The notes: generated by a model not told the origin, from the sequence alone. Shown: positions 16,147 through 47,974, counted from the first letter of the stretch. The stretch is 64,000 nucleotides of DNA from a virus (IMGVR_UViG_3300024262_000026:1-64000); one strand, 5' to 3'. Numbers and translations are program-made.

Positions 16147-16177
16147 AAAAAAGAGGCTCAATTTTGAGCCTCTTTTT
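16147..16177. terminator. Bidirectional terminator
   Basis: aaaaagaggctca/tgagcctcttttt at a convergent junction. Confidence 0.8.
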
Positions 16178-16580
16178 CTATTTTATCAAGTTTGATTTTT
16201 CTATCCCGTTTTAATAGTTCCTTTGTTGTAAAACCCCAAGCAATACATCCAAACCGAACATCAGTATCAATATCAGATTTACCTTTTACTGCGGTATCAC
16301 CATCTATCGATGTAAGAGTTAAACCATCTTTACAGATATGATATGCCCATAATGGCATCACTATTAAATTTTCATCCCAAGACGAAAACCCAAGTTCGAA
16401 TAATTCATCCTTTGTAAACTTTGTAAAATCAATATCTTGATCTTCACAAAATTTGTCATATGCTTCACGAATTTGTTTAAGCTTAAAATCATCACCCCAA
16501 CCATCATATTCAAAAGCCTGAGCATTTGTCGAAATAATATAATTTTTATAACTGTTTATTTTCTGTACTTCTTCTCTCAC
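16158..16580 (-). CDS. Hypothetical phage protein with C-terminal RxxKLxxI tag
   Basis: Ends DRKIKLDKIEKEAQN. Confidence 0.75.
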   Translation of the reverse strand: MREEVQKINSYKNYIISTNAQAFEYDGWGDDFKLKQIREAYDKFCEDQDIDFTKFTKDELFELGFSSWDENLIVMPLWAYHICKDGLTLTSIDGDTAVKGKSDIDTDVRFGCIAWGFTTKELLKRDRKIKLDKIEKEAQN

Positions 16581-22000: not shown

Positions 22001-22290
22001 ATACCAGACATAGGCGAACCTTGTGGTACCATATATTTGAAATTTTTAATTAAGTCAAATATTTTTTCTTCACTCAACGGATTTGAATATTTCTTCTCTA
22101 TTCTATGCAACTCACGGGCAATCCTTTTATGCATATCATCAGGAGTTAATTCATAATATACAGTATTATCATCCACTCTACCATCTATTGTATCTTTTAA
22201 TGAGTACTTATTAATCCAAACATCAGTTGCTAATGTATCGCCTTTGAAATATTGTAAAGTAGCATTATATACATCTTCTCTTTTGTACAT
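19078..22290 (-). CDS. nrdJ: Class II (adenosylcobalamin-dependent) ribonucleotide reductase, intein-containing
   Basis: SLSNCF, RRGGVG, EPG, STNP|CGE, TIAPTGS, KGITVYRDGSR, C-terminal CPEC..CQDC; no beta subunit adjacent. Confidence 0.93.
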   Translation of the reverse strand: MYKREDVYNATLQYFKGDTLATDVWINKYSLKDTIDGRVDDNTVYYELTPDDMHKRIARELHRIEKKYSNPLSEEKIFDLIKNFKYMVPQGSPMSGIGNDRQTVSLSNCFVIGNDADSYGGIFLTDQEQAQLMKRRGGVGHDLSHIRPKGMRVKNSALTSTGIVPFMERFSNTTEEVAQDGRRGALMLTVSVKHPDSGGFIDAKMQEGKITGANVSIKIHDDFMKAVSKNTKYTQSFPIDSKNPKFTKDVEAKPIWDKIVHNAWKSAEPGILFWDTIMRESVPDCYQEYGFKTISTNPCVVGDSLIAVADGRNAVSIKQLALEGEDVPVYSTNNEGKVEIKWGRNPRKTKKNVEVWKLTLDDGSELIATPDHRIYMKNNTYKELKDLIEGDSISSFYSFSSNKGYRQIAQTGQKMLGGRFRNRRQYRLIHEFYYDEFVDYKNVAIHHKDFDNSNDKTFADFKNQVVNNHKVMKIEFYGYEDVYNITVDDNHNYNIITNFEDDKYITSGGICVKNCGEITLCPYDSCRLLAINLYSYVVNPFTKDAYFDFELFSEHVQYAQRFMDDIIDLELEKIDKILEKIITDPEPAHIKRTETELWLKIKEMSEKGRRTGLGVTAEGDMIAALNLRYGTKPATEFSTKVHKILAINAYKSSAIMAEERGSFPVYDYEKEINNPFISRLKNDDPELNEKLKKGRRNIALLTIAPTGSVSICTQTTSGIEPVYLVSYKRRRKINPNDKDSRSDFIDDKGVHWEEYNVFHHKFETWLEINGYNIGEVKKMKEDELKEIIKKSPYYKATSNDVDWVEKVRMQGEVQKYVDHSISVTVNLPNDVTEEMVSKVYETGWKSGCKGITVYRDGSRQGVIVSHDEKSIEQQMKENNAKRRPKRLECEIIKFTNNKEKWVAFLGIDEISKEKYPYELFTGLAESFQIPIYVEHGTIIKIKEKDSDGVIHKRYDFEYTDRDGYKVTMQGLNRAFNREFWNYSKMVSAFLRHRIHLPSVLNIVDGMNMATNGEEELNFGTWKAGVKRILKKWIKDSVETTGTICPECGSTNIIWQNGCKECQDCGFQGCD
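20749..21396 (-). mobile_element. Intein (216 aa) at the catalytic NP|CGE motif of RNR
   Basis: Starts CVVGDSLIAV, block B ATPDH, block F DVYNITVDDNHNY, ends VKN followed by Cys+1. Confidence 0.92.
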
Positions 22291-33378: not shown

Positions 33379-34053
33379 TTAATTTACAATTATCTTTTTT
33401 AATTCAATCTCAGTATAATTTTCATTAATACCAACATCAAAATATATCAATTCTTCATTGACAACTCTAAAACCAATATTACCCGAATGAACATCAACTG
33501 GGTAAATATTATATTTCTTAGTTTCTATTGCAATATGTTTCAATTTTTCAATATAACTATCAACCTGCTTTTCCGTAAGACATATTTTACACTCATCAAA
33601 ATATTTAGTCTTAAAATAGTTAATATACGAAGGATGGAATTCATTATATTTAAAGAAATCTTCTTGATTATAATTCACTGCAAAATAGTCAAAAAAATCT
33701 CTTACTGCTTCTGAGTACTCAACTAATGTAATCAAATACTCCATTATTAATACATATGTTGGCTTTTTTAATTCGGAACTCACCAATTCATACACTTCAT
33801 AATATTTAACTATATTATTTGTATTTTCACCAATCAACATATTTGCGGTAAACGCTTCTCTTTTATCTGTTGTAATTTTCATTACTTTATATCCATCCAC
33901 TTTATATGCTGAGCCATATGATCCAGTATTAATATAATTCATAATATCTCTACCTATCTTTCGAGCAACATTTCGTGCAAATACCATACTATATCTACTG
34001 GACGCAATTTGTTCCACTTGCCATTCTTCAAAGCAACAATACATTTTCTTCAT
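33379..34053 (-). CDS. Protein kinase-like protein
   Basis: TGSYGSAY Gly-loop, VMKIT, LIMEYL hinge, DVHSGN catalytic loop, FDVG. Confidence 0.8.
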   Translation of the reverse strand: MKKMYCCFEEWQVEQIASSRYSMVFARNVARKIGRDIMNYINTGSYGSAYKVDGYKVMKITTDKREAFTANMLIGENTNNIVKYYEVYELVSSELKKPTYVLIMEYLITLVEYSEAVRDFFDYFAVNYNQEDFFKYNEFHPSYINYFKTKYFDECKICLTEKQVDSYIEKLKHIAIETKKYNIYPVDVHSGNIGFRVVNEELIYFDVGINENYTEIELKKIIVN

Positions 34054-34069
34054 TGTAACCTTATATATT

Positions 34070-34096
34070 AAACTTTAAAAAAAGATTTTGATATAT
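34070..34096 (+). promoter_or_regulatory. Putative ECF-type promoter AAACTT-N16-TATAT
   Basis: At the head of the small-ORF array. Confidence 0.5.
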
Positions 34097-34121
34097 TAAA
34101 TTATAAAAACAATTAAAAATC

Positions 34122-34550
34122 ATGTTAGAACATTTATATGATAAAAATGGGGATTTAAAACCTGAGATAAAAGAAAAAATAGAAATTTTTGCTGAAGAAT
34201 TCAGCGCAAAATTAGATATTGAATATAAAAGAGCACAAAAACTCAAACACTATTTAGATGAAAGAGATTTTGATGATTTTATAGGAAGAATAATTAGAGA
34301 GCATGGTGACAAATATTGTGATAAATGTTATAAAAAAGGTTATGAACCTTATCCTAATAATAAATTTAATTTATTATTAAAGTTAGTTGAAATTGAAGGA
34401 GAAGAAATAACAGACATTGATTTTAAGGATGATTGTGTTTTTCCAAATCAAATTATAAAATATAAAAATTATTATTTTCAATGGATTTGGGGGCAAGGCT
34501 GTATCATACTTATATATGATGAAAATCATGAAAGAATATTTTCAATATAA
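34122..34550 (+). CDS. Hypothetical protein
   Basis: 142 aa; CDKC; stop overlaps next start. Confidence 0.75.
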   Translation: MLEHLYDKNGDLKPEIKEKIEIFAEEFSAKLDIEYKRAQKLKHYLDERDFDDFIGRIIREHGDKYCDKCYKKGYEPYPNNKFNLLLKLVEIEGEEITDIDFKDDCVFPNQIIKYKNYYFQWIWGQGCIILIYDENHERIFSI

Positions 34551-35005
34551 TGGCAAGTTTACATAAACCAATATCACCATTTTTCCCAAATCCAATTTTA
34601 TTATTTGAACCTATCTATAACAATTTAGTTGATATTGACTTTGGTGAGAATGTTTTAAATGAAAATTGTTTTAAAATAAAAGGCAATATTGCACACATTC
34701 ACAACAATTATGATAATATAAGGAAAAAAAGTACATCACAAATAATAGAATCTTTGATTAATACTAATTTGCCAAAAGTTATATTTAATTATCACGATAA
34801 AAATGGTGAAGTATTAGAACAAATAATTGTTTGCAATTTCAAATTTATAAAAATCATAAATAAATTAGATTTTAATTGGAATGAGAATACACTAAAAAAA
34901 TTAAAAGTTCAATTTGAATATGATAAAACTTTTCATTCTGAAAAAGAATACAATTCATATATTCGAAAAGAAAAATTAAACAAAATAAATGGACGAAAAG
35001 ATTAA
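34550..35005 (+). CDS. Degenerate tail-tube paralogue with C-terminal RxxKLxxI tag
   Basis: FEPIYNNL, YHDKNGEVLEQIIVCN and LDFNWNENT align with the 664..1227 tube; ends IRKEKLNKIN. Confidence 0.65.
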   Translation: MASLHKPISPFFPNPILLFEPIYNNLVDIDFGENVLNENCFKIKGNIAHIHNNYDNIRKKSTSQIIESLINTNLPKVIFNYHDKNGEVLEQIIVCNFKFIKIINKLDFNWNENTLKKLKVQFEYDKTFHSEKEYNSYIRKEKLNKINGRKD

Positions 35006-35321
35006 AAAATTAGAAGAACATCTAAATTTTGTTTGGAGTTTAATTCCAAACAAACCAACATATGGAGAATTTAATAAAATATTTCCTGTTAAAAATAATG
35101 TGGAAGTATTAAGAAACTTTGAAAAAGAAAATGAATGGTTTGGTATAGCAAGATATGATACCGAAAATGAAGGCATTTCAATACTTAGTATGTTTGCATC
35201 TATCACAGACTTTTTAAGTGATGGTTGGAGATTAGCATTTGACACCGAAGGTGATAATAAAGATACACCAATAGAAGAACAAATAATTGTGGGATTTAAA
35301 ATGATTAGACTTGATAATTAA
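34989..35321 (+). CDS. Hypothetical protein
   Basis: Start overlaps the upstream tag. Confidence 0.7.
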   Translation: MDEKIKKLEEHLNFVWSLIPNKPTYGEFNKIFPVKNNVEVLRNFEKENEWFGIARYDTENEGISILSMFASITDFLSDGWRLAFDTEGDNKDTPIEEQIIVGFKMIRLDN

Positions 35322-35554
35322 TCATCAACATTTTCAATGTAAGGAAATCTTTCTTTATTTCTCGGATCTATAATATCTTTGCGATATTCAAGAACATCTA
35401 ATTTTATTTCTCTACACTTCTTTGCCACATCCTCTAATTTTCTTCTTAACCTAATAGATGCCGCCTTAATATTCTTACTATAAGTTTTATAATAATCAAC
35501 TCTTGCTGACTCTAATATTTCAATCAGTTCGTCAATTTCATTTAACTCACCCAT
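35318..35554 (-). CDS. Histone H1-like (Hc1-type) small basic protein
   Basis: KNIKAASIRLRRKLEDVAKKCREIK resembles the Bacteroidota Hc1-like GNKAAGTRARK core; start revised to ATG 35554 after a late motif. Confidence 0.6.
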   Translation of the reverse strand: MGELNEIDELIEILESARVDYYKTYSKNIKAASIRLRRKLEDVAKKCREIKLDVLEYRKDIIDPRNKERFPYIENVDD

Positions 35555-35631
35555 AAAACTTATTTTTATTTTTATATATTGATTGAAATAGGACCCATAC
35601 ACCATAATATATAAAAATAAAAATCATTATA

Positions 35632-36096
35632 ATGATGAAAAGAAGTGAATTTTTTGATCTATACAATAAATTGCAAGGTCTTAGATACCATAGTGACAAC
35701 AAAAATTTTTCTTATGCCTTAATAAAAAATATTAAAGCTATTGAACAAGATATTAACAAACTTAATGAAGTTATAAAACCAACTGAAGAATTTCTACAAT
35801 TTGAACAAGAGCGACTTGCTATTTGTCAATCACATTCAATTAAAGATGATAATGGTGACCCACTTTTAAATGGTGATGAATTTCAAATTGAAAATATTGA
35901 AAAATTTAATGAAGATTTAATACCATTAAAGACGAAATATCAAGACATGTTAAATTATAGACAAGAACAAATAGAAAAGTATAATTCTCTTTTAGATCAA
36001 GAAATTGAAATGGAATTAGTTAAAATAGGACCAGATGATTTACCTGATACTATAACACCAAACGAAATAGAAGATATCTATCCTATATTGTTATAA
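35632..36096 (+). CDS. Hypothetical coiled-coil phage protein
   Basis: FSYALIKNIKAIE; late motif upstream. Confidence 0.75.
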   Translation: MMKRSEFFDLYNKLQGLRYHSDNKNFSYALIKNIKAIEQDINKLNEVIKPTEEFLQFEQERLAICQSHSIKDDNGDPLLNGDEFQIENIEKFNEDLIPLKTKYQDMLNYRQEQIEKYNSLLDQEIEMELVKIGPDDLPDTITPNEIEDIYPILL

Positions 36097-36790
36097 TAAA
36101 TGCTTTTTTTCTTACAGATAATATATCACAAAAGGTGATGGAACTTATTTTGTCACCTTTTGTCCATATATTTTGAACCTTATTGTGTCCAACATATTGA
36201 TGAATATTTTCTAATGGCTCCTCTAATTCTCGTTTATCCGCCCAAGTTGGTCCACCTATATAAGAATCACCACCTCTCCAAGATGATACTTGCATTAAAA
36301 TATCTCTCCATTTATCATCATTTCCAATATCATTTAACACTTCAGCTAAATTTGAATTATCTTCTTTTAATCCAAAATATTTTAATACCTCAATATGTTC
36401 ATCATACCACCAAACACTAATACCAGCATGTACAAAAATATGATTATCTCTTTGTAATGCAAATTGGAAAAGAGATTTATTTTTTTGAAAAACTTTTATG
36501 GTTTCTTTTAACCTTTCATTATAGTTTACTGAACTTGTATGGTATTTAGGATACCACATATATTGGGCATCGTGATTACCTATAAGTAATGTAACATTAT
36601 CTGGGTGAGACTTTTTATAATTTATAATCAAATTCAAATTTACAAGTGCATCACTATCATCAATCTTATTATCATAAGGATCACAATAATCACCCAGAAA
36701 AATAAAATGGGTATCTTTATTCTCACCAACAAAATCCATCCAGGAATCTCTACCGTGAATATCACCTATAACACAAAATCTCATAAACAA
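36083..36790 (-). CDS. Calcineurin-like metallophosphoesterase
   Basis: GDIHG, GDYCD, GNHD, HAG, GHN. Confidence 0.9.
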   Translation of the reverse strand: MFMRFCVIGDIHGRDSWMDFVGENKDTHFIFLGDYCDPYDNKIDDSDALVNLNLIINYKKSHPDNVTLLIGNHDAQYMWYPKYHTSSVNYNERLKETIKVFQKNKSLFQFALQRDNHIFVHAGISVWWYDEHIEVLKYFGLKEDNSNLAEVLNDIGNDDKWRDILMQVSSWRGGDSYIGGPTWADKRELEEPLENIHQYVGHNKVQNIWTKGDKISSITFCDILSVRKKAFIITI

Positions 36791-36848
36791 TTCTTTATTT
36801 AATGAATATACTTATAATATATCACAACTGAATAAAAGTTTGATAATT

Positions 36849-37178
36849 ATGGTTAATATAACATTTGACGAATATGTAAATATGATGGAAGACGAATCTA
36901 AATGGCAAATAATAAAAGATTTTGTTAATGAAACAAAGTACTTTCGTTCCAGAGATATTCCACTTGGAAGTACTGGAAAAGTATATGTAAACTATTTACA
37001 CAAAGCTGGATTTTTAGGTAGACCTAAAAAAGGTATTTATTCATTAAACTTACATGTCGAAAATGATATAACATTATATAAAGTAACGGACTACGCTTAT
37101 GGTGACAATAAAGGAGTAATCAATAAAGTTGTTCGTAAAAACAAAATTATAAATTTAAATGAAATTTCAGAAGAATAA
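36849..37178 (+). CDS. Hypothetical protein with C-terminal tag variant
   Basis: Ends VRKNKIINLNE; ATG 36849 preferred over TTG 36840. Confidence 0.7.
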   Translation: MVNITFDEYVNMMEDESKWQIIKDFVNETKYFRSRDIPLGSTGKVYVNYLHKAGFLGRPKKGIYSLNLHVENDITLYKVTDYAYGDNKGVINKVVRKNKIINLNEISEE

Positions 37179-37476
37179 AGACGGTTACATAGAAGTTGAA
37201 TATGAAGGTTCTTATTATTTTCTAGATGGTAAAAAATGGGTAAGAGATTTTAAAATTGATAACTCAACATATTACAGCAATACTGGTCATAACACAACAA
37301 GAAAATTTATTATTCCAGTAGGACAACTATCTAGAAAACAGGCAGAAAAGCAAATAAAACAATTGATGGCACAATATACTGATAAAGAGGTATTTTACGA
37401 TGAAATTCAATCTAAATTGACACGATTATTAAGGAAAGCAAAATTAGATCAATTAAAAAATGTTGAAATTTTATGA
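37159..37476 (+). CDS. Small protein with portal-like segment and RxxKLxxL tag
   Basis: RKFIIPVGQLSRKQAEKQIKQLMAQY; ends LRKAKLDQLK. Confidence 0.65.
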   Translation: MKFQKNKDGYIEVEYEGSYYFLDGKKWVRDFKIDNSTYYSNTGHNTTRKFIIPVGQLSRKQAEKQIKQLMAQYTDKEVFYDEIQSKLTRLLRKAKLDQLKNVEIL

Positions 37477-37844
37477 GCAAATATTGGGTTAAAGTAAACG
37501 TTACTTGTAGGAACGACATCAAACTTTATACAGATGATAAAGAAAAACTTAATGAACTAGAAAAAGATGCTGTTACACAAGCATTTTTACATGAAAGAAC
37601 TTGTAAATTATGTGCAGATATCAAATGGATGAGAGAACAAAGAGAAAAAGAAGATGCACTTTATAGAGTACAATCAGTTGCAAGATGTGGAGAAATATTA
37701 TTTGTTGAACACACAAATCCATCTGAAGTAAGAAAAACACAGATGGAAAGAAATGTATGTCAACAAGTGGCGGAACATAGAAGAAATTGTATAAAATGTA
37801 TAAGAATAGAAAAATTAGATAAAATAAAGAATTTAACAATTTAA
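37473..37844 (+). CDS. Cys-rich hypothetical protein with RxxKLxxI tag
   Basis: HERTCKLC / HRRNCIKC repeat; ends IRIEKLDKIK. Confidence 0.7.
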   Translation: MSKYWVKVNVTCRNDIKLYTDDKEKLNELEKDAVTQAFLHERTCKLCADIKWMREQREKEDALYRVQSVARCGEILFVEHTNPSEVRKTQMERNVCQQVAEHRRNCIKCIRIEKLDKIKNLTI

Positions 37845-37855
37845 TAAAATTAAAA

Positions 37856-38452
37856 ATGGAATTAGAATATACACAAAACGATTTAAAATCAGCATTTGAA
37901 TTTGGTAAAAAGTATCCAAATTTAAAATTAAAAGATTGGTTTAAATATGAGAAAACTCAACTAACAAAAGAAGAACAAAAATTATTTAAATTTATTGATG
38001 TTGCAACAGTACCGATAGGTAAATCCAAATTGTTTTTTATGAATTGGAACGGTGTTGGAGGTGGACATTTTTCTGAACCTTTTAAAATATTCAAGAGAAA
38101 ATATTTTAACAAATATTATCAATTTTTTAATAATTGTTCTGGAGAGTTTAGTGTGATAGTAACAGGAGAAGATTTTTTCAACTTAAAAACCTTTGATAAA
38201 ACTGATTATGAAGGTGTGTATGTAAAAGAAATAATTCATAATGATGTAAAAATTACTATTATGAATTATATTGATTTTGATGGCGATAAAGATGAACATC
38301 AAGCTCATATGTTCTATTCTTGGAGAAACACTTTAGAACGAAATAATTACCATTTTTGGCAAATGGCGAATTGGGACGTTTATATTGATAAACCTTATAA
38401 TTTAAACGTCACACCAGCATTAGAACTTTTAGAAAAAAAAATCATTAAATGA
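37856..38452 (+). CDS. Hypothetical protein
   Basis: 198-aa ORF in array. Confidence 0.75.
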   Translation: MELEYTQNDLKSAFEFGKKYPNLKLKDWFKYEKTQLTKEEQKLFKFIDVATVPIGKSKLFFMNWNGVGGGHFSEPFKIFKRKYFNKYYQFFNNCSGEFSVIVTGEDFFNLKTFDKTDYEGVYVKEIIHNDVKITIMNYIDFDGDKDEHQAHMFYSWRNTLERNNYHFWQMANWDVYIDKPYNLNVTPALELLEKKIIK

Positions 38453-38715
38453 AATATAAAGTAGGTGATAAATTAGTTTGTAGAGAAAATTTTGGTGATT
38501 GTATGGATACCATAATTTGGTATAAAAAACATAATTCATATGAAATAAATGACATCAGAAATAATTGGTTTGAAGAAAATAAAACTGCATATTTTATATC
38601 AATTAATGATAGTTCTGATCTTGAATTTGAATATTCTGAACTACTTAAACATTTTTATATACCAAGTGAACTTAGAAGAAAAAAATTAGATATCATAAAT
38701 GAAATATCCGAATGA
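38449..38715 (+). CDS. Hypothetical protein with RxxKLxxI tag
   Basis: MKYKVGDKL...LRRKKLDIINE. Confidence 0.75.
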   Translation: MKYKVGDKLVCRENFGDCMDTIIWYKKHNSYEINDIRNNWFEENKTAYFISINDSSDLEFEYSELLKHFYIPSELRRKKLDIINEISE

Positions 38716-39742
38716 TTTTATAAATAAAAATATAGTTGGCGACTCAGTAGAATTGATGAAGCAAATTCCTGATAATGTTATTGATTTAACAGTAACATCA
38801 CCACCATACGATAATCTCAGAACATATAAAGGTAAAATAAAAGATAATATTACTTTTGATGATTATTCATTTCCTTTTCAGGAAATGGCACAAGAACTCT
38901 ATCGTATAACAAAGAAAGGTGGTATCGTTGTATGGGTAGTAAACGATCAAGTAAAAAATGGTGGAGAAACTGGCACATCATTTAGAATGGCATTATATTT
39001 TCAACAAATAGGATTCACTATTTATGACACTATGATTTATCACAAAAATGGTCCACCATTTCCAGAATCTGGTAGATATTCACAAGTTTTTGAATATATG
39101 TTTGTATTTTCAAAGGGTAAACCAAATACTGTCAATTTAATTAAAGATAAAGAAAATCGTTGGTCAGGACACCAAAATTTTGGCACACCTTCTGCAAGAA
39201 CAAAAGAAGGCAACTTAAAAAAATCTGAAGCATTTACTGTTGCAGAATATGGCACAAGATATAATGTTTGGTACATCAATGCTGGTAAAGGCTACACAAC
39301 TAAGGACGATTATGCTTACGTTCACCCAGCAATGTTCCCAGAAAGTTTATCGGAGGATCATATTTTATCTTGGACAAATGAAGGTGATATTGTATTAGAT
39401 CCGATGTGTGGAGCAGGCACCACTTGTAAAATGGCAAAACTTAATAATCGTAAATACGTGGGTATGGACATCAATCAAGAGTATGTTGATATATCTGACA
39501 GACGAGTAGAGATCGTGTCTTACAACAAGGATAAACCTAACCCAAAGGTTAAATTTATCGTTTCAAGGGATGAAATCTTAGAAAAACGAAAGAAAACTAG
39601 AGAAGAAAACAAAAGAAAGAAAGAAATGGATTTAACGGAAAAAGATATAGAAATTTTGGAAAAAACAATTGAAAATCCACCAGAACCAAATGAAAAATTA
39701 AAGGAAGCTGCGGAAAAATATAAAGAAGATATAGATGATTAG
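38699..39742 (+). CDS. DNA N4-cytosine/N6-adenine methyltransferase (beta class)
   Basis: TSPPY before HPAMFP and VLDPMCGAGTT. Confidence 0.92.
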   Translation: MKYPNDFINKNIVGDSVELMKQIPDNVIDLTVTSPPYDNLRTYKGKIKDNITFDDYSFPFQEMAQELYRITKKGGIVVWVVNDQVKNGGETGTSFRMALYFQQIGFTIYDTMIYHKNGPPFPESGRYSQVFEYMFVFSKGKPNTVNLIKDKENRWSGHQNFGTPSARTKEGNLKKSEAFTVAEYGTRYNVWYINAGKGYTTKDDYAYVHPAMFPESLSEDHILSWTNEGDIVLDPMCGAGTTCKMAKLNNRKYVGMDINQEYVDISDRRVEIVSYNKDKPNPKVKFIVSRDEILEKRKKTREENKRKKEMDLTEKDIEILEKTIENPPEPNEKLKEAAEKYKEDIDD

Positions 39743-39917
39743 CGAAGAATTACTTAAAATTCACTATAATAGTCGTAATGATGGTTTTGATGAAGAAGAA
39801 GATGATGACTATGAAAAAATTCAAGAAATTTATAAGCAATCCGCATATGAATATGAAAAGTGTGTGAAATTATATATTGATTATATGGAACAAGAAAAAA
39901 TAAAAGTAAACAGATGA
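39735..39917 (+). CDS. Hypothetical protein
   Basis: 60-aa ORF overlapping the MTase stop. Confidence 0.55.
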   Translation: MISEELLKIHYNSRNDGFDEEEDDDYEKIQEIYKQSAYEYEKCVKLYIDYMEQEKIKVNR

Positions 39918-39939
39918 GTAAATTAAAAAGTGAATTATT

Positions 39940-40674
39940 TTAAAGTTTATGATTATTTATTCTATTTTGTGCTAATTCAAAAGTTTCAGACTCTATCTCA
40001 ATACCAATAAATTTTCTATTAGTGTTAAGGCAAGCTATTCCTGTAGTACCTGAACCCATAACATTATCCAACACAACATCGCCTTCATTTGTGTAAGTTT
40101 TTATTAATTCTTCTAACAATTCTATACTTTTCTCTGTTCTATGAAGAGACTTGCTAGGGTGTGGCTTTTGAAAAGAAAAAATAGATGTTGGGTATTTTTC
40201 TGTTGTGCCCGCTCTCGAATCATCAACCATATCAAAATCACCATAATTTTGATTTTTATGTTCTTTATTTAAATATGATGTACCTTTAGAATGTAATGGT
40301 TTGCCACATATAAATTGTGGATTATAAGTTGGCAATTTTGAATAAAAGACAGCTATTTGTTCATGAACCCTCAATGGCATCCTGTTTGCATTTAAAAATC
40401 CACTAATCAATTGTTTATCCCAAATTATATCATATCTAAACATTTTTCTATTTGAATTAACTAAATCAACATAAAATATACCTTGAGAGAATAATAATAT
40501 TGGACCATTATCTTTAATAACTCTTTTATATTGCTTCCATAATGGCTCAAAAGGAATTCTAATATCCTTCTTATTTTGTGTCACACCAAACGGCAAGTCT
40601 GCCAATATTATATCGACACTTTTATCTTCTATTTTATTCATCACATTTAAACAATCACCCTTATATAATATCAT
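39940..40674 (-). CDS. DNA amino-methyltransferase (beta class)
   Basis: DLPFG, HRTEK, VLDNVMGSGTT. Confidence 0.9.
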   Translation of the reverse strand: MILYKGDCLNVMNKIEDKSVDIILADLPFGVTQNKKDIRIPFEPLWKQYKRVIKDNGPILLFSQGIFYVDLVNSNRKMFRYDIIWDKQLISGFLNANRMPLRVHEQIAVFYSKLPTYNPQFICGKPLHSKGTSYLNKEHKNQNYGDFDMVDDSRAGTTEKYPTSIFSFQKPHPSKSLHRTEKSIELLEELIKTYTNEGDVVLDNVMGSGTTGIACLNTNRKFIGIEIESETFELAQNRINNHKL

Positions 40675-40778
40675 ATATTTTATTAATTTTTACTTTATAT
40701 ATTTAAAAAATGATATTGTTTTTGTTACCTTTTTACATTTACATTTTTAATATATAAATAAAAACCACTTTTTATAAA

Positions 40779-41822
40779 ATGAAATGGACAAAAGAAGAAT
40801 GTACAAAAGAGGCACAAAAATATTTATATAAAAAAGATTTTAAAAAATATTCATCAGGCGCATATACATCATCAATTAAAAATAAATGGTTGGATGATAT
40901 AACTAAACATATGATATCTTTACGAAAAAGCAAAGATGAGTGGACATTAGAAGAATGTAGAGATATTGCAAAAAAATACAAAACAAGGACAGAATTTAAT
41001 AAAAAAAGTATATCAGCTTATAGAATATCATTATCTAATGATTGGATAGCTGATGTTTGTTCACATATGAATTGTTATGGTAATAGGTATTTGAGATGTA
41101 TATACTCATATGAATTTAGTGATAACTCAATATATATTGGGTTAACATATAATACGGATAATAGACATAAAAAACATATGTTTAAAGGAACAGTAAAAGA
41201 ACATATGATTAAAATTAACGAGAATCCAAAAATTAAAAAATTAACAGAATATCTACCAATAAATGAAGCAAAAAATGAAGAATATAAATATGTAGAATTT
41301 TATAAAAAAAATGGCTGGAAAATTTTGAACAAAATAAAAACAGGGGGAGTTGGAGGCACATCAATCATATGGAATTATGAAAATTGTAAAAAGGAATCAT
41401 TGAAATATAAAAGTAGAAGTGAATTTGCAAAAAATAACGGTAGCGCATACTATTCATCTATAAAAAACAAATGGCTAGATGATATATGTTCTCATATGAT
41501 ACTAAAAAAGAAACCTAATGGATATTGGAATTATGAAAATTGTAAAAAAGAAGCCTTAAGATATAAAACTAAAAAATTTTTTTATAAAAACTCAAAAGGT
41601 GCTTATAACTCAGCAAAAAGAAACAAATGGCTTAATAATATCTGTGAACATATGATAGGTAATAAAAACATAGGATATTGGAATTATGAAAATTGTAAAA
41701 AAGAAGCTTTAAAATATAAAACTAAAACAGAATTTAAAACTAAATGTGGTAGTGGCTATTTTTATAGCTATAAAAACAAATGGCTTAATGATATCTGTGA
41801 ACATATGACAAAAAGCGATTGA
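40779..41822 (+). CDS. GIY-YIG-like homing endonuclease with five ~50-aa repeats
   Basis: CIYSYEFSDNSIYIGLT..R..H; repeats WxxExCxxEAxKY...AY...KWLxxICxHM. Confidence 0.75.
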   Translation: MKWTKEECTKEAQKYLYKKDFKKYSSGAYTSSIKNKWLDDITKHMISLRKSKDEWTLEECRDIAKKYKTRTEFNKKSISAYRISLSNDWIADVCSHMNCYGNRYLRCIYSYEFSDNSIYIGLTYNTDNRHKKHMFKGTVKEHMIKINENPKIKKLTEYLPINEAKNEEYKYVEFYKKNGWKILNKIKTGGVGGTSIIWNYENCKKESLKYKSRSEFAKNNGSAYYSSIKNKWLDDICSHMILKKKPNGYWNYENCKKEALRYKTKKFFYKNSKGAYNSAKRNKWLNNICEHMIGNKNIGYWNYENCKKEALKYKTKTEFKTKCGSGYFYSYKNKWLNDICEHMTKSD

Positions 41823-41830
41823 TTTAATTA

Positions 41831-42358
41831 ATGGAACTACCTAATAATGAACAAATATATAAAGATATGTTTGATATGATGAATAAGGTTTTCAAAGAAA
41901 ATAACGTTTTTCAAAGAAAACCAACAATACTTTATGATGATTATTATACAAATTTTATAACATTTTTGAAAAATAGCTTTGAATATGATCGTTTTCAAAA
42001 TGAAAAGTTAAATATTGTTGATTATGTTGATAATTTTAAAAATTTAGAACTATTCTTTAAAATTATCAGTAATACGAATGTTTTTTTAGTTGAACAACCA
42101 TCATTTATTTTGCATTATCTTCAAGATGATAACCAACTAACTACAATTACTAAACAAGTATCCGAAACAAACATTTATGGCTTTGTTGATGAATTTAATA
42201 AAAGCAATAAAATATTTATTTTATATATGATTAGGAGTAATGGAATGTTGAGATATGTCACAGTTGATAAAGATCCAAGATACATACAACTTAATGTGAA
42301 AGAAAGATTAAAGAAAGAAAGAAGATTAAAATTAGAACAAATAAATGAAACAATATAA
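41831..42358 (+). CDS. Hypothetical protein with RxxKLxxI tag
   Basis: Ends ERRLKLEQINE. Confidence 0.75.
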   Translation: MELPNNEQIYKDMFDMMNKVFKENNVFQRKPTILYDDYYTNFITFLKNSFEYDRFQNEKLNIVDYVDNFKNLELFFKIISNTNVFLVEQPSFILHYLQDDNQLTTITKQVSETNIYGFVDEFNKSNKIFILYMIRSNGMLRYVTVDKDPRYIQLNVKERLKKERRLKLEQINETI

Positions 42359-42731
42359 ATGGATAATATGGTTTCCTAAAAAATGGGAGAGACATACACA
42401 TTCATCTCCTTCTGTGCTTTATGGATATTTAGATGGTGAAATATTTATATCAAATAAATATCTTTTCAATACTGACATTGAAAGTGAATCTAATGGTTTC
42501 ACACCTATTGATGAAAGATTTAAAGAAAAATATTATTATGAATTTTTTGATTCTAAAGATGATGTCGTTATATTGAGCAAAGAACTTCAAAGGGAAAAAT
42601 ATAAAATAAAACAAGAATTTCAAGATAAAATGGAAAACTTTTATTCTAAAACATCTTTAAAAAAGATGAAAAATAAAATTAGAGAAGCGAAATTAAAACA
42701 AATAAATGAGCAAATTTACGATAGGGGATAG
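42345..42731 (+). CDS. Hypothetical protein with RxxKLxxI tag
   Basis: IREAKLKQINE. Confidence 0.75.
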   Translation: MKQYKWIIWFPKKWERHTHSSPSVLYGYLDGEIFISNKYLFNTDIESESNGFTPIDERFKEKYYYEFFDSKDDVVILSKELQREKYKIKQEFQDKMENFYSKTSLKKMKNKIREAKLKQINEQIYDRG

Positions 42732-42975
42732 AGTTATTTATATTGGTTTCAATGATGATGGTTTAGATGGTCCAAATGCTTGGAAATTAGAAAGATTGCA
42801 AGAATATACTATCACAAATAAAGCATTTGAAACACATAAAGATACAGGTATGTTTTATGGTGTGAGAGATTATAAAGGTGTAGAAACTACTTGGTATAAA
42901 GAAAAGGATTTTATAAGTATTGTTGAAGCTAGAAAATTAAAATTAGATAAGATAAATGATAGATATAACATATAA
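42706..42975 (+). CDS. Hypothetical protein with RxxKLxxI tag
   Basis: MSKFTIGDRV...ARKLKLDKIND. Confidence 0.75.
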   Translation: MSKFTIGDRVIYIGFNDDGLDGPNAWKLERLQEYTITNKAFETHKDTGMFYGVRDYKGVETTWYKEKDFISIVEARKLKLDKINDRYNI

Positions 42976-43789
42976 TAGAACAGAAAACACAACTCGGGTA
43001 GAATTATCAACATTTAACATTTTTAATGAGGAACAATTACCTCTTGTAGTAAAATTTAAAAATTTTATTAACAATAAAATAGTTTGGACTCGAAAATTAG
43101 ATGAAGGTTGTTGGGTTGAATGGTCAGGTGGTGAAGTCATATACAATTTTACAATTGATACTGCTCAAGAACAACGAGTATTAGATTGGAAATATCAAGT
43201 TGAAAATAATGGCACACTTGTAGAAAAAACATTATATTATTTCATTAAAAATACCCCACATAGAACTAAAGGACTTATTGTTGGTTCACATAATGGATTA
43301 TGGGGTCAATGGATATTTCCAGTAATAGAAAATGCTTGTGATGTTGTAATGGTTGATGGTAGTTCACTTCAATTGGAAGAAGCCAAAATAAACTATTCTC
43401 ATCTAAATAATTGTAAATTTATAAATGAAATAGTTACACCTGATGGTAAAGATGTTACTTGGTTTCAAGGTAAAGAAGGGTGTACAGATACCGTGGATAA
43501 GAAAATTATTTCAAAATTTTTAAACGAAGATGAAATCATAAGTAGTTTTAGAACGACTATATCAATAAACAATATTTTTGAACAATACGGAAACTTTGAT
43601 TGGCTCTATTTAGATGCTGAAGGTATAGACTCAGATTTAATATTATCTCTTAATTATCATCCTGGTTTAATAATATATGAACCTGATCATATCTCTGATA
43701 AACAAAATATCAAATTGATGGAATGGTTTAAATTAAATGGGTATAAAGTATTTGAAGAATTAGATTGTATAGCAATAAAAGAAATATGA
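42956..43789 (+). CDS. FkbM-like SAM-dependent methyltransferase (divergent)
   Basis: LIVGSHNG, DWLYLDAEGID..I, IIYE. Confidence 0.65.
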   Translation: MIDITYNRTENTTRVELSTFNIFNEEQLPLVVKFKNFINNKIVWTRKLDEGCWVEWSGGEVIYNFTIDTAQEQRVLDWKYQVENNGTLVEKTLYYFIKNTPHRTKGLIVGSHNGLWGQWIFPVIENACDVVMVDGSSLQLEEAKINYSHLNNCKFINEIVTPDGKDVTWFQGKEGCTDTVDKKIISKFLNEDEIISSFRTTISINNIFEQYGNFDWLYLDAEGIDSDLILSLNYHPGLIIYEPDHISDKQNIKLMEWFKLNGYKVFEELDCIAIKEI

Positions 43790-44046
43790 GATACGAAAAA
43801 GAATATTTAGATAAAATTGGAATGAAAGTATCACACAAAATTGATGAAGATACAATGGCACCAATAGTAACATTTGAACTTAATGGTGTTGAATCTACAA
43901 TAAAAATGACAAGACTTGATATGGAAGATTTTAAAAGTGGTCCACCATATGATGATTTTATTGTTAAAAGAATTAACTCACATATAACAGAATTAATAAA
44001 AATTGTTAGGAAAAAGAAATTGGAAGATATAAATGAAATGGACTGA
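43786..44046 (+). CDS. Small protein with capsid-like segments and RxxKLxxI tag
   Basis: IDEDTMAP, MTRLDMEDFK, VRKKKLEDINE; ATG 43786 overlaps the upstream stop. Confidence 0.7.
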   Translation: MRYEKEYLDKIGMKVSHKIDEDTMAPIVTFELNGVESTIKMTRLDMEDFKSGPPYDDFIVKRINSHITELIKIVRKKKLEDINEMD

Positions 44047-44314
44047 AGAAAGAAGAAAAGCATACGGTATTGATTTAGATACTATGAGTGAAGCGACAAT
44101 GGCACCAAGATTAAGAATAACAATTAATGGATACTCAACCTTAATGTCATTAACTAGAGAATTTATAGAAGATTTAAAATGGCAAACACCGAATTCAGAA
44201 GTGTTTATTGATAGTATGATAGATGATGAAATTGAAAGACACCCTGAATTTAAAAGGATAGTCAGAAAAAAGAAATTGGAACAAATTGAACGATTGGACA
44301 GAACGGATAGATAA
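44033..44314 (+). CDS. Paralogue of upstream gene; capsid-like segments and RxxKLxxI tag
   Basis: MSEATMAP, LTREFIEDLK, VRKKKLEQIE. Confidence 0.7.
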   Translation: MKWTEERRKAYGIDLDTMSEATMAPRLRITINGYSTLMSLTREFIEDLKWQTPNSEVFIDSMIDDEIERHPEFKRIVRKKKLEQIERLDRTDR

Positions 44315-44588
44315 TATGTATTGGTGGGATGAATATAAAAAAGAAACTATTATAATCTCCAAAGAAGATGTTAATGAATCAGTAGGTAAAGGTATGCCTA
44401 CTAAGATCATAAAGAAAAACACAAAACTAAAAATTACAGATAGTTTCAAATTTATGATATTTGTAGAAGATGAAAATAGAAATTTGGGGGTAATTGATAC
44501 TAAAGATATAAATAGATTTTATAATACTAAAGAAAGTGCTAAAATTATTAGAAAAGAAAAATTAGATAAGATAAATGATAAAATATAA
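44286..44588 (+). CDS. Hypothetical protein with RxxKLxxI tag
   Basis: IRKEKLDKIND; true start may be ATG 44316. Confidence 0.7.
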   Translation: MNDWTERIDNMYWWDEYKKETIIISKEDVNESVGKGMPTKIIKKNTKLKITDSFKFMIFVEDENRNLGVIDTKDINRFYNTKESAKIIRKEKLDKINDKI

Positions 44589-45132
44589 TTTTGGAATAGA
44601 ATGTGAAATATCTTGGAATAAATTTCTCTGTGTTAATATGGGTGAAGAAAGACGATATAAACAAGAATTTGAAAATTTTAATGAATTTTTCTATTTTTTA
44701 GAACACAATAAACGAACTATAACAAAATTATTATTTGATGGGTATGAATATATTCTTCAAAATGGACTATTACATAATTTATACGGACCTGCAAAATTAA
44801 GACATAAAGAAAAAGAAGATGGAGATCCATTTTTCGGCACAACCAAATGGTTTTTTATCAATGGTAAATTGGTAACCGATAAATTAGAAAACTATAGGGG
44901 ATGTAAGAATTTAGAAGATTTTGAAAATAATGAAATTTTCTTTTACGAAGAAGTAACAGGTAAAAAATCTGGTAGAGATGAAAAGACTGGACAACTTTAT
45001 AGACGAAAAGAGGGTATTGATTATATAAAACATCCAATAAATTTAGAATCACTTAGACAAAAAGATATAAGAAAAAAGAAATTAGACCAAATAGATGAGC
45101 AAGATAATTATAATCAGCAATACCCAATTTAA
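44575..45132 (+). CDS. Hypothetical protein with RxxKLxxI tag
   Basis: GLLHNLYGPA..KWFFING; IRKKKLDQIDE. Confidence 0.75.
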   Translation: MIKYNFGIECEISWNKFLCVNMGEERRYKQEFENFNEFFYFLEHNKRTITKLLFDGYEYILQNGLLHNLYGPAKLRHKEKEDGDPFFGTTKWFFINGKLVTDKLENYRGCKNLEDFENNEIFFYEEVTGKKSGRDEKTGQLYRRKEGIDYIKHPINLESLRQKDIRKKKLDQIDEQDNYNQQYPI

Positions 45133-46063
45133 CATATCAAAAAACCTTACAACTAAAGAATGGTTGAAGAATATGGATTATTATTTCAACAACGAATTTA
45201 TACCTTATTTAAAGCAAAATAAGAGCGATAACGACATATTAGTACACTTAGGTAATCTACTATCAAATACCAAAAACATCAACTTAGAAGTCTTAAAATT
45301 CATTCAGGAGACATTTGAGAGTATAAGTTCAATACTACCAGTCTATATTTTAAACGGTGAAAATGATACACACACAAAAACCATCTTAAACAACATTAAA
45401 GATATTGAAATAATATCAGAACCTAAAGAAATTGAAATTTTATTAGACCAAAGATTCGCAATGTTACCAAGTAATAGTAAAGTAGAAGATATTGACAAAT
45501 TTGATTCTGATTATTGTTTTTTTCACTTTGATATTAATACACCTCAAAGAGATTCAATACTTAAAAAATTATCAAAATTTCAAAAATGTTATTGTGGTTA
45601 TTATGATAAAAATGGTGTTATGAAAAATATTAAATTTTTAGGTTCACCATACAACTTAGAAAAAGATGAAAAGAAAGGGTTTATTGTTCTAGAAACACAC
45701 ACTAATAAAGATAAATTTATTCTTAATAAAATAAGTCCATCATTTAAAAAAATTACAATAAATGATGATGAAGATTTTGAAATAGATAAATCCATATTTT
45801 TAAATAACTACGTGAGTCTCACATTAAATAAAAAACTTTTTGTTGATAATAAACTAAAAATAGAAATGTTATTATCAGAAAATGATTTTAAAAATGTTTC
45901 TTATACGGATGATGATATTAAAAGAGATAGAGATCTGATACAATTAGATGGCGAATCAGTTTCATTGAAAGAGATGATATCCGAATATATACAGAAATCA
46001 GAAATAGATAATAAAGATAGATTATTACAAGAATTTGAAAAAATAACAAAATTAAATGGATAA
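45095..46063 (+). CDS. Mre11/SbcD/gp47-like nuclease homologue with degenerate metal ligands
   Basis: Fold pattern retained (LVHLG, FLGSPY, KGFIVL, NKISPSF) but ligands read SNTQ, GNL, GEND, GYYD. Confidence 0.75.
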   Translation: MSKIIIISNTQFNISKNLTTKEWLKNMDYYFNNEFIPYLKQNKSDNDILVHLGNLLSNTKNINLEVLKFIQETFESISSILPVYILNGENDTHTKTILNNIKDIEIISEPKEIEILLDQRFAMLPSNSKVEDIDKFDSDYCFFHFDINTPQRDSILKKLSKFQKCYCGYYDKNGVMKNIKFLGSPYNLEKDEKKGFIVLETHTNKDKFILNKISPSFKKITINDDEDFEIDKSIFLNNYVSLTLNKKLFVDNKLKIEMLLSENDFKNVSYTDDDIKRDRDLIQLDGESVSLKEMISEYIQKSEIDNKDRLLQEFEKITKLNG

Positions 46064-46259
46064 TTATTACAAAGAATTATTAAAGAAACATTATGAATCA
46101 ATAAATGAAAAAGATATACAAGAGTATATGGATTTCTGTTTGGATTACGTTAAAGAAAACATCATAAATTGTTATAGTAATGAGAAATCAACAAAAAATG
46201 TTATTGAAGAATTATTTAAAAGAGGTATGGCTAAAAAATGGAAATTAAAACATGATTGA
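46056..46259 (+). CDS. Hypothetical protein
   Basis: 67 aa, overlapping both neighbours. Confidence 0.65.
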   Translation: MDNYYKELLKKHYESINEKDIQEYMDFCLDYVKENIINCYSNEKSTKNVIEELFKRGMAKKWKLKHD

Positions 46260-46518
46260 TTTAAAAGGTAAAGTAAATTTTAGGGATTTTACTACAGAAG
46301 ATTTATTGGAATTGGGAATACAAAGTATTTCTACAATATCTGAGGCTTCTTGGAAACCAAAAGTTATGTTTAAATTTTTGGACGGCAATGAAGAATCATT
46401 TAGTGTAAATAAAGATGAAAATATTGAAGATAAAATAAACAATAAAATAAACGAAATTGTTAGAAAGAAAATAGTAGAACAACGAAAAGAAAAACTAAAC
46501 CAATTAAAATGTTATTAG
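46252..46518 (+). CDS. Small protein with capsid-like segment and RxxKLxxL tag
   Basis: QSISTISEASWKPKVMFK; QRKEKLNQLK. Confidence 0.7.
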   Translation: MIDLKGKVNFRDFTTEDLLELGIQSISTISEASWKPKVMFKFLDGNEESFSVNKDENIEDKINNKINEIVRKKIVEQRKEKLNQLKCY

Positions 46519-46778
46519 ATTTCACAACATTGTCAGATGATCAAATACAATTTTTCCTAAAATTTTTAAAAGCTGACATAATTGAAAAAGGAGAAATTGA
46601 AAGATATATATTATCAGGTAAATGTATCAAAATTAAAATATCGTATTATGATACTATTATAATTGAACCTGAAAAAATTATATTTTATCCTGAGGTTGGT
46701 ACACCTCAAACTATTCTCACAATTGAAAATATTCAAAATTGTGTTAATCTATATAATGAATTGATTAAAAATAATTAG
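46509..46778 (+). CDS. Hypothetical protein
   Basis: Last ORF of the array. Confidence 0.7.
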   Translation: MLLDFTTLSDDQIQFFLKFLKADIIEKGEIERYILSGKCIKIKISYYDTIIIEPEKIIFYPEVGTPQTILTIENIQNCVNLYNELIKNN

Positions 46779-46781
46779 CAT

Positions 46782-46816
46782 AAAAAAAGAGAAAGTTAAA
46801 ACTTTCTCTTTTTTTT
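46782..46816. terminator. Bidirectional terminator ending the array
   Basis: aaaaaaagagaaagtt/aactttctcttttttt. Confidence 0.85.
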
Positions 46817-46825
46817 ATGTAAGTA

Positions 46826-47974
46826 CTATTTCTTATTAATTTTAAATCCCATTCCTTTTGTAGAATCATCAACATCAGCCAAATCAATTAATTGTTTTCC
46901 ATTCTTATCATCATAAACTTCTGCTAAAGTTGCCGCAGTTGTAAATTTTTTATTTGCACCAATATACTTAGACAAATCAGTTGCTTGTATAGGTGTTAAT
47001 TTTTTAAATTTATAGTTCACCATCAATCTACCCTTTCTCAAAAGTGCTTCATCAATTATTTTCTTTTCCACATTTAAAGTAGCAATAATTTGCATATCCA
47101 AATAATCATTCAATAAACCATCACTCATATTTAAAATATTTGTAACTGCTTGATCTCTATCCTCAGTAGTATTTGTTAAGATTGTTTCGGCATCTTCTAA
47201 AAGTAAAACAGTATTTTTAAATTTAGAAACAAAAGAAATCAACTCAGGTTCTGCAATACCATACATCATATAACTTGGTACATATATAATAGTCTTTTCC
47301 TCTGATAAATCGTGTATAATTTTACGGATATATGTTGTCTTACCAGTACCTGGTGATCCATGAAATAGAAACAAACCTTTTTTATTTTCTGATAATTTTT
47401 TAATAATTTCTTTATCTTTATCAATAAATTCCTCACCATAATTCATCTTCAAATTAATATCAAGATCCTTAACGGTAGCATTACGAAGTTCATATCCATA
47501 ATTACCTCTTGAAATAAGGAAAAATGATTTGTTTTTTGGTGGATGGTATGTCATTTCTTCAAGTTTTGGTAAAATATCATTATTGACAAAATCAGTCGAA
47601 TCTGACTGGAAATAAATTAACATTTCAAATATTTTATCCTCTTGTTCTTCAGGGGTTTCATATAACTCCGAATCAATAACCTTTTTTTCATCATAAAAAA
47701 TAAACATCACTTTATATGGTTTATTTAGAGTTACAACATACTTATAACTTCGCTCTTCCCTACCTTTTATATCCTTTTGTATATCACAATGAACCATCAT
47801 ATTCTCAGGTTTAACATTATATTCAGTTTTTAAAAAATTCCAAAACTTATCCGATATTATCTGTTGTGATATAGAAAACCTATTTGTAAACTTACCAAAT
47901 TCTACATAGGCATATACATCCTCTTGTCTTTCAAATATATCATTTGAAAGTGTCAAATTTATTGTTTTATCCAT
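46826..47974 (-). CDS. AAA+ ATPase
   Basis: HGSPGTGKT, LLLEDAE, LNMSDG, ALLRKGR. Confidence 0.9.
   Translation of the reverse strand: MDKTINLTLSNDIFERQEDVYAYVEFGKFTNRFSISQQIISDKFWNFLKTEYNVKPENMMVHCDIQKDIKGREERSYKYVVTLNKPYKVMFIFYDEKKVIDSELYETPEEQEDKIFEMLIYFQSDSTDFVNNDILPKLEEMTYHPPKNKSFFLISRGNYGYELRNATVKDLDINLKMNYGEEFIDKDKEIIKKLSENKKGLFLFHGSPGTGKTTYIRKIIHDLSEEKTIIYVPSYMMYGIAEPELISFVSKFKNTVLLLEDAETILTNTTEDRDQAVTNILNMSDGLLNDYLDMQIIATLNVEKKIIDEALLRKGRLMVNYKFKKLTPIQATDLSKYIGANKKFTTAATLAEVYDDKNGKQLIDLADVDDSTKGMGFKINKK

Follow-up and report, generated by a model that had tools for sequence, protein, structure and literature searches.

A putative C-terminal peptide tag at the gene junctions of a low-GC huge-phage genome fragment

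The sequence analyzed here, referred to as the window, comprises bases 1-64000 of the 73,024-bp virus record IMGVR_UViG_3300024262_000026, for which a completeness of about 10% was given by CheckV. Between 34.5 and 46.5 kb the window carries an array of small plus-strand genes which end in a short conserved element, here called the tag, with the start codon of the next gene placed close behind it. As read from the sequence, the conserved element points to a peptide, R-K-x-K-L-x-x-[IL], and the pattern as a whole is probably caused by a novel C-terminal tag in combination with tight gene packing and recombination at the junctions. In an earlier note on the same DNA the array had been described as a series of units running from ATG to tag without a stop codon of their own, in which the ATG is phase-locked at 25 nucleotides (nt) behind the Arg codon of the tag and in which the element may serve as peptide tag, initiation region and recombination junction at once.

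Ten junctions were read directly. The distance from the Arg codon to the next ATG is 25 nt at nine of them (marked +25 in Table 1) and 26 nt at 46483/46509, the sole exception, so that the spacings given in the earlier note are exact. In the upstream frame R-[KRE]-x-K-[LI]-x-x-[IL] is encoded, and this frame extends 3-12 codons into the following gene. Long gene overlaps of 10-38 nt are present at 9 of the 12 tag junctions of the window, with an overlap of 4 nt at one of the 12, and an overlap of at least 8 nt is found at 9/12 tag junctions versus 7/55 other co-directional gene pairs (Fisher P = 4e-5). Both the direct reading and the overlaps bear out the description of units that lack their own stop codon. 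At nine of the ten junctions TAA or TAG stands directly before the ATG in the downstream frame, and the start can therefore not lie further upstream. A programmed frameshift joining the units into a polyprotein was considered separately and is ruled out by the same stop codon at the same nine junctions.

The distribution of the element in the whole record was determined at the DNA and at the peptide level. A degenerate DNA pattern (up to 3 mismatches) matched the 73-kb record nine times on the plus strand, and neither the minus strand nor the reversed control gave a match. The peptide scan of the whole record resulted in 14 tagged genes, of which 13 are plus-strand genes between 34.5 and 46.5 kb; the remaining gene is encoded on the minus strand (16202). 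An ATG at +25 follows 9 of the 13 plus-strand tags and is lacking behind the four tags beyond those listed in the earlier note, and all 14 tag copies are located 9-20 codons from the stop codon.

Codon use, conservation among orthologues and the position of tags that have no gene behind them agree in supporting a real peptide tag. Among the junctions of the window the Arg residue is encoded by CGA, CGT, AGA and AGG and the Leu residue by TTA, TTG and CTA. In the viral collection, 53 loci were retrieved by a pattern search, mostly on contigs of 40-500 kb with a guanine plus cytosine (GC) content of 20-27%, which contain hundreds of small genes with the motif at their end. In 148 tags, with the search seeds left out, the fixed residues (R0, K1, K3 and L4) show the same codon usage as the bodies of the same genes, e.g. 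with a TTA share of 0.586 in tags versus 0.607 in bodies and an AGA share of 0.838 versus 0.732. This codon variety and background usage at the fixed residues indicate that selection acts on the peptide. The conserved profile also reaches upstream of the core, with an aromatic residue at -12 followed by F-I-[ST]-[IL]-K-E-[ILY] at -7 to -1. In orthologues of the 89-amino-acid (aa) tagged gene (54-86% identical over the alignment) R76, K77, K79 and L80 are invariant and the residues behind the core vary.

According to sequence comparison and structure prediction, the tag is a helix added to unrelated protein bodies. Comparison of the 14 tagged proteins with each other by BLASTP resulted in one significant pair (E 9.7e-05) and two more pairs at E values of 0.12 and 0.73. 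AlphaFold predicted a five-stranded beta barrel for one tagged family (predicted local distance difference test score, pLDDT, of 72) and a confident all-helical fold for another (pLDDT 96), and in both of them the tag forms a C-terminal helix. This helix is predicted to be amphipathic and basic and is usually preceded by hydrophobic residues before the core. The best matches of the barrel to solved structures in Foldseek were PWWP, SH3, Tudor and PetP, all of them weak (E of about 0.03), and the 88-aa protein at 38449..38715 was grouped with this SH3-like family by alignment alone, without a fold prediction of its own. For the helical family no Foldseek match was found among solved structures; a profile search of the sequences in the PDB gave only one chance-level row, and matches in the ESM Atlas were limited to unnamed viral clusters. 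None of the 14 tagged proteins of the window scored at or above the curated cut-off of a Pfam family, and 10 of the 14 had no convincing match in PHROGs (best E 0.0046). Of 42 SH3-like tagged proteins, 41 were without a Pfam hit at E <= 0.01, and the single weak hit (E 0.0023) was taken as chance.

Relatives of the SH3-like domain made it possible to separate the tag from the domain. In untagged multi-repeat relatives, one of which matches SH3_15 with 32.9 bits, every repeat ends with R-F-E-L-V, and since these repeats end there without a tag, the tag was added to the domain. A profile built from the 42 SH3-like tagged proteins matched 3,442 cluster representatives at E <= 1e-3, 338 of them also at E <= 1e-10. 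Of the 149 top-scoring hits, 134 consist of a single domain, and 132 of these carry the tag, a count that is biased because the profile itself contains the tag. One multi-repeat relative carries the source label NusG. Four further frames contain two SH3-like units each: in P0049 the full tag is followed by the in-frame Met of the next unit, and in P0012-P0014 the tag of the first unit is shortened. Judged from these arrangements, all four look like fused cassettes.

By its sequence, the window is a fragment of a low-GC huge phage whose published relatives have genomes of 635-735 kb and predicted Bacteroidota hosts. The GC content of the window is approximately 24-33%, and it encodes a tail sheath protein, a gp5-like baseplate hub with a VanY domain, RtcB, a UvsX-like recombinase and a DnaB-like helicase. 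The sheath protein is nearest to those of the uncultured phages LR756501.1 (735 kb, 52% identity) and LR745206.1 and others (635-642 kb, 45-47%), followed by those of phages of Flavobacterium, Prevotella (Lak), Tenacibaculum and Chryseobacterium. In PMC7162821, where those genomes were described, genomes larger than 634 kb are all assigned to the 'Mahaphage' clade, for which Bacteroidetes hosts are predicted.

In LR745206.1 the motif occurs within 20 codons of a stop codon 139 times, compared to 9 times for the reversed motif, a few rows in such counts being artefacts in which the pattern runs across the stop codon. The tag was assigned to 128 of 1,021 frames of at least 60 aa (median length 102.5 aa), which corresponds to about 130-140 proteins overall, and the ten largest tagged proteins had no match in Pfam. 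The distance from motif to stop codon peaks at 10-11 codons, and this peak comprises 48 of the 81 tags with a downstream start and 37 of the 55 without one. As the distance is the same with or without a following start, the position near the C-terminus belongs to the protein. The region L072 (LR745206.1 374174-377377) contains a run of five consecutive small genes (996-2236) that end with R-x-x-[KR]-[LI]-x-x-[LI]-G-I-stop, in which the DNA ATATGA places the next ATG at +29 with an ordinary 4-nt overlap; overlaps of this ATGA type account for 30/81 tag junctions in this genome. A tblastn search with a typical tagged protein gave no match among GenBank phages, and a codon-specific DNA pattern found 0-1 sites in five GenBank huge phages, the latter scan being uninformative because the tag of LR745206.1 has other residues and codons. 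Literature searches for such a tag in huge phages and megaphages gave no relevant match, and the term 'C-terminal' is absent from the main text of PMC7162821, the supplements of which could list protein families. Taken together, the tag looks widespread and undescribed.

The exact spacing of 25 nt, which in the earlier note was regarded as a phase lock, is a local by-product of packing and not a mechanism, because the offsets vary in relatives and the residues N-[DE] follow the ATG. In relatives the ATG is located 23-46 nt behind the Arg codon. For 137 unseeded tags the offsets were 23 (12 tags), 25 (23), 28 (9), 29 (6), 31 (14), 32 (8) and 34 nt (8), and 29 of the 137 had no nearby start. Thus +25 is the commonest offset, yet it applies to only 23/137 tags, or 23/108 of those with a start behind them. 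In LR745206.1 the start is mostly placed at +28/+29 (31/81 tags with a downstream start) and the upstream gene has its own stop codon. The residues [ND][DE] behind the core were found in 13/21 tags with a start at +25, in 4/87 with other offsets and in 0/17 with no gene behind, and in the orthologues of the 89-aa gene N-[DE] occupies positions 8-9 in 2/8 while R, K, K and L are kept. This concentration in +25 tags indicates that the start codon imposes these residues, which reverses the proposal that the tag ends with I-[ND]-[ED] and thereby supplies the ATG. The earliest out-of-frame ATG slots behind the core are +23, which gives Cys, Trp or a stop codon, +25 and +26; of these, +25 is the slot used in the window genome.

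The regions upstream of the translation starts were compared in order to relate the tag DNA to the other starts of the record. Of 91 gene starts, only 2 have a Shine-Dalgarno-like 4-mer. The stretch from -18 to -11 is rich in A, T stands at -13/-12, and nearly all starts, tagged or not, are preceded by an A-rich box like GAAAAAATAAT that ends about 9-10 nt before the ATG, e.g. at the starts 1227(-), 6078(-), 7078, 25581(-) and 29737. With a matrix derived from 81 untagged starts, mean scores of 4.51 for tag junctions, 2.40 for untagged starts and -3.17 for internal ATGs were obtained, and 9 of the 10 tag junctions scored above the 95th percentile of the internal ATGs. The scarcity of Shine-Dalgarno-like sites, the relatives among phages of Bacteroidota and the upstream-like score agree with the part of the earlier note in which the element was seen as an initiation region of the Bacteroidota type without Shine-Dalgarno pairing.

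Relatives of the array were searched for gain and loss of genes, as had been suggested in the earlier note. Close relatives were absent from the viral collection in protein-seeded scans, and a metagenome scan resulted in three short contigs related to the array. The closest of them (L062, 81-89% identical) lacks 42345-42731, 42956-45094 and 46056-46259, which correspond to the 128-aa gene, a block of five genes and a gene of 67 aa, the latter being flanked by the degenerate junctions at 46056 and 46252. At all three indels the ends of the alignments overlap within the junction repeats, by 20, 7 and 17 nt, respectively, and the breakpoints are thus where the earlier note had expected them. The first junction is a clean recombinant, in which 13 identical bases are preceded by sequence matching the left junction and followed by sequence matching the right one. 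In a second relative (L064) a different tagged gene of 172 aa replaces four genes, and the 185-aa gene starts with TTG. A low-depth variant joining 42349 to 42705 with 24 letters replaced, which is of the L064 type, was found in a DNA run containing the window and was taken as real; other read joints in two DNA runs, which had sides shorter than 31 letters and were often located between tags, were not counted. Among the sequencing runs listed as containing the window, none was of RNA. As far as sequence comparison goes, the blocks missing in L062 support cassette-like gain and loss. At another locus (L036 1254-1300) a tag ending with I-N-E, encoded by ATAAATGA, is followed only by M-K-L-stop, with the next gene 26 nt further on; by its sequence this site may be the remnant of a lost cassette.

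The reading that probably accounts for these results can be summarized as follows. Many small proteins of the phage would end in one helical tag fused to unrelated bodies. Under tight packing the next ATG would be placed directly behind the tag core, among the first slots that spare the core, and at +25 it would force AAT or GAT followed by GAN, i.e. N or D followed by D or E, while the upstream gene would continue to the first out-of-frame stop codon. The 25-nt phase would then result from a tag near the C-terminus and maximal packing. The A-rich tag codons resemble the usual upstream region of the phage and probably double as initiation region for the gene that follows. As a junction of 13-28 nt is repeated at each boundary of the array, recombination between copies could delete or insert whole genes in frame, and the +25 design was likely distributed over the array in this way. 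For the tag itself, our best guess is a docking helix for one shared partner.

Several observations weigh against this reading or narrow it. The distribution of the tag among huge phages is patchy, since LR756501.1, the closest relative by its sheath protein, did not show the tag signal in its first 398 kb (5 hits, mostly artefacts, versus 1 for the control); the signal was also not seen in the initial 199 kb of either Lak-C1 or PTm1. Within the window genome the +25 offset varies less than in the family despite the unrelated bodies (at least 9/13 given the frequency in relatives, P = 2.8e-4, a value that is a guide only as the copies are non-independent). Packing alone does not account for this uniformity, and the spread by junction recombination is what we infer in addition. 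The register of the start matrix is not sharp, with a score of 5.24 at a shift of -5 versus 4.51 in register, and the role of the tag DNA as initiation region is argued from its composition, which suggests compatibility and is not proof. The junction comparison draws on three short relatives of the array; the second junction of L062 is in frame but 9 nt longer, and L064 is imprecise at the loss of the 128-aa gene. Two more distant relatives differ from each other by indels of 348 and 881 nt at gene boundaries that carry no tag. Consequently the tag junction is not the sole shuffling point, and of the shufflable array proposed in the earlier note, the recombination within junction repeats stands for L062, while such exchange is not confined to the tags. 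Finally, no partner of the tag was found, and a complex prediction for two tagged proteins with different bodies scored 0.00, which is neutral on binding.

It could be argued instead that the DNA or RNA is primary, the A-rich 28-mer being an initiation region, a promoter or a recombination site and the peptide only its read-through. The A-rich box occurs genome-wide at about -20 to -10 of the starts, the scores of the tag junctions reach the level of genuine starts, tails rich in K, N and E are also present where untagged genes run through the box, and degenerate tag-like junctions are present at 39735, 46056 and 46252. However, the codons of the conserved residues follow the background, with 31% of the Leu codons being CTN, which interrupts AAATTA; the informative part of the box does not include the invariant Arg, which is encoded by two codon families; tags without a following gene keep their position (37/55 in LR745206.1; 16202); the ATG offset is spread over 23-46 nt; and the peptide context is conserved 7-12 residues upstream of the Arg. 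A primary role of the nucleic acid is therefore considered quite improbable. Judged very improbable is an action of the nascent chain, in which the last 8-10 residues (R-K-x-K-L-x-x-I) would slow or hold the ribosome from within the exit tunnel and pass it on to the next ATG in a host without Shine-Dalgarno pairing. This idea, itself drawn from sequence, has to contend with tags that are kept without a downstream start in 55/136 cases in LR745206.1 and 17/125 in other relatives, and with the same wide span of offsets, even though in two lineages the tag is nearly fixed at 8-10 codons before the ATG (9/13 at +25; 31/81 at +28/+29) and Shine-Dalgarno-like sites are nearly absent. A further point in its favour is that coupling was found in reporter work to require very short stop-start distances (PMC10666635), so that the overlaps of 10-38 nt would need an additional aid.

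Tandem duplication of one ancestral gene, with the junction identical by descent and the bodies diverged past recognition, would explain the one paralogue pair within the array, the runs of clear paralogues in relatives with one offset per run, and the very large size of the SH3-like tagged family (the 3,442 representatives at E <= 1e-3). On the other hand, the tagged proteins have at least two different predicted folds and include several families unrelated by sequence, the untagged SH3-like relatives ending with R-F-E-L-V mark the tag as an add-on, and the clean recombinant in L062 represents an exchange at the junction; duplication as the sole source is of similarly low probability as a primary nucleic acid element. 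Rather unlikely, and bolder than a docking helix, is a proteome-wide address label, in which one reader would recognize R-K-x-K-L-x-x-[IL] on more than 100 orphan open reading frames (ORFans) per genome and the codons of the label would double as junction and start region of the next gene. Such a label might, for example, direct the tagged proteins to the very large capsid, so that they are co-injected, or to a common site in the infected cell. If this were true, an open reading frame dropped between two junctions would gain a start site, a position coupled to its neighbour and the label at once, and the array would be a built-in trap that recruits new accessory genes.

Among known systems, the promoter-early stem-loop (PeSL) cassettes of T4-type phages serve the modular shuffling of small genes within hyperplastic regions (PMC2839356). 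Both arrangements have a short repeat between many small, non-essential and fast-changing phage genes, and in both whole genes are inserted, deleted or replaced between close relatives, the points of exchange falling within the repeats (here in L062). The repeat described here differs in that it is coding and under selection at the peptide level. The promoter and stem-loop of PeSL have no counterpart in the array: the region 33500-47500 contained 117 sigma-70-like promoters versus 115.2 +/- 11.1 in shuffles, a count limited to sigma-70-type sites, and 3 terminator-like sites versus 2.3 +/- 1.6 expected, none of them at a junction. Excised mini-circles are a further mark of PeSL; for the array, the joints read in the two DNA runs have sides of fewer than 31 letters.

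The internal proteins of T4 carry an N-terminal capsid-targeting sequence that is removed by the prohead protease. As in that system, one short peptide is common to otherwise unrelated small phage proteins and may have one partner, whereas the tag described here is C-terminal and predicted to be helical, allows 1-12 residues behind it and is present on about 130 proteins in one genome. C-terminal address labels are known as the cargo-loading peptides of encapsulins and the LPXTG or PEP-CTERM sorting tags. The tag resembles them as a short C-terminal motif on many unrelated proteins at a near-fixed distance from the end (10-11 codons in LR745206.1) and differs in its motif, in listed tails without a hydrophobic anchor segment and in its carriers, which are small phage ORFans. 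Finally, the co-directional overlaps recall translational coupling, and at 30/81 tag junctions of LR745206.1 they are of the ordinary ATGA type. In PMC10666635, -4/-1 overlaps are given as by far the commonest; the overlaps of 10-38 nt in the window (9/12, with 4 nt at 1/12) are far longer.

The coordinates of all tagged genes and of the degenerate junctions are listed in Table 1. Other genes are interspersed in the array. Two N6/N4 DNA methylase genes (38699-39742 and 39940-40674 (-)) face each other within it, and a 95-aa protein encoded on the opposite strand (35318-35605 (-)) matches the histone H1-like family Hc1 with 31.2 bits (cut-off 23.5). The 347-aa protein encoded at 40779-41822 consists in part of several internal repeats of approximately 45 residues (W..E.C.KEA.KYK...EF......AY..A.KNKWLDDIC.HM) and has no Pfam match; part of its gene is inverted in L062, and we presume that it resembles a mobile nuclease-type gene. 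Outside the array, the tail sheath homologue (1837-6078 (-)) has 1,413 aa, of which the sheath family profile matches only the last approximately 350 residues, and the gene for the large subunit of ribonucleotide reductase (19078-22290 (-)) is split by an intein splicing domain.

Table 1. Tagged genes and tag-like junctions in the window; offsets in parentheses are counted from the Arg codon of the tag to the next start codon
Feature	Coordinates	Strand	Tag and following start
140-aa tagged gene outside the array	16158..16580	-	R-K-I-K-L-D-K-I, Arg codon 16202; convergent neighbour, no start behind
151-aa tagged gene	34550..35005	+	Core R-K-E-K-L-N-K-I at 34964-34987; next ATG 34989 (+25)
112-aa tagged gene	36840..37178	+	R-K-N-K-I-I-N-L at 37134-37157; next ATG 37159 (+25)
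105-aa tagged gene	37159..37476	+	Tag 37432-37455; next ATG 37473 (+41, ordinary ATGA overlap)
123-aa tagged gene	37473..37844	+	Variant tag R-I-E-K-L-D-K-I at 37803-37826; 11-nt spacer, next gene 37856
88-aa tagged gene	38449..38715	+	Tag 38674-38697; next ATG 38699 (+25), the start of a DNA methylase gene
Degenerate tag-like junction, end of methylase gene	39711..39737	+	..E-K-Y-K-E-D-I-D-D; ATG 39735; overlap 8 nt
175-aa tagged gene	41831..42358	+	Tag 42320-42343; next ATG 42345 (+25); I-N-E in 4/4 orthologues
128-aa tagged gene	42345..42731	+	Tag 42681-42704; next ATG 42706 (+25); gene missing in L062 and L064
89-aa tagged gene, predicted SH3-like barrel with C-terminal tag helix	42706..42975	+	Tag 42931-42954; next ATG 42956 (+25)
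93-aa tagged gene	43765..44046	+	Tag 44008-44031; next ATG 44033 (+25); paralogue of the next gene
93-aa tagged gene	44033..44314	+	Tag 44264-44287; no ATG at +25; next start TTG (+22) or ATG (+52)
100-aa tagged gene (TTG start, or ATG 44316)	44286..44588	+	Tag 44550-44573; next ATG 44575 (+25)
185-aa tagged gene	44575..45132	+	Tag 45070-45093; ATG 45095 (+25, within I-D-E); overlap 38 nt
Two degenerate junctions	46031..46259	+	E-F-E-K-I-T-K-L-N-G with ATG 46056; K-K-W-K-L-K-H-D with ATG 46252
88-aa tagged gene	46252..46518	+	Tag 46483-46506; next ATG 46509 (+26)

Most genes of huge phages are without known function, and one helix shared by about one eighth of the long frames of a genome (128/1,021 in LR745206.1) offers a handle on this class of proteins. 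The tag is present in thousands of metagenomic protein clusters, and its reader would define a pathway common to all of them. At the DNA level the element would be a coding repeat with two uses, as it allows the in-frame gain and loss of genes without an integrase and may supply the start region of the next gene in a host lineage that lacks Shine-Dalgarno pairing. The design of these junctions would thereby carry the idea of modular shuffling known from T4-type phages from regulatory to coding repeats.

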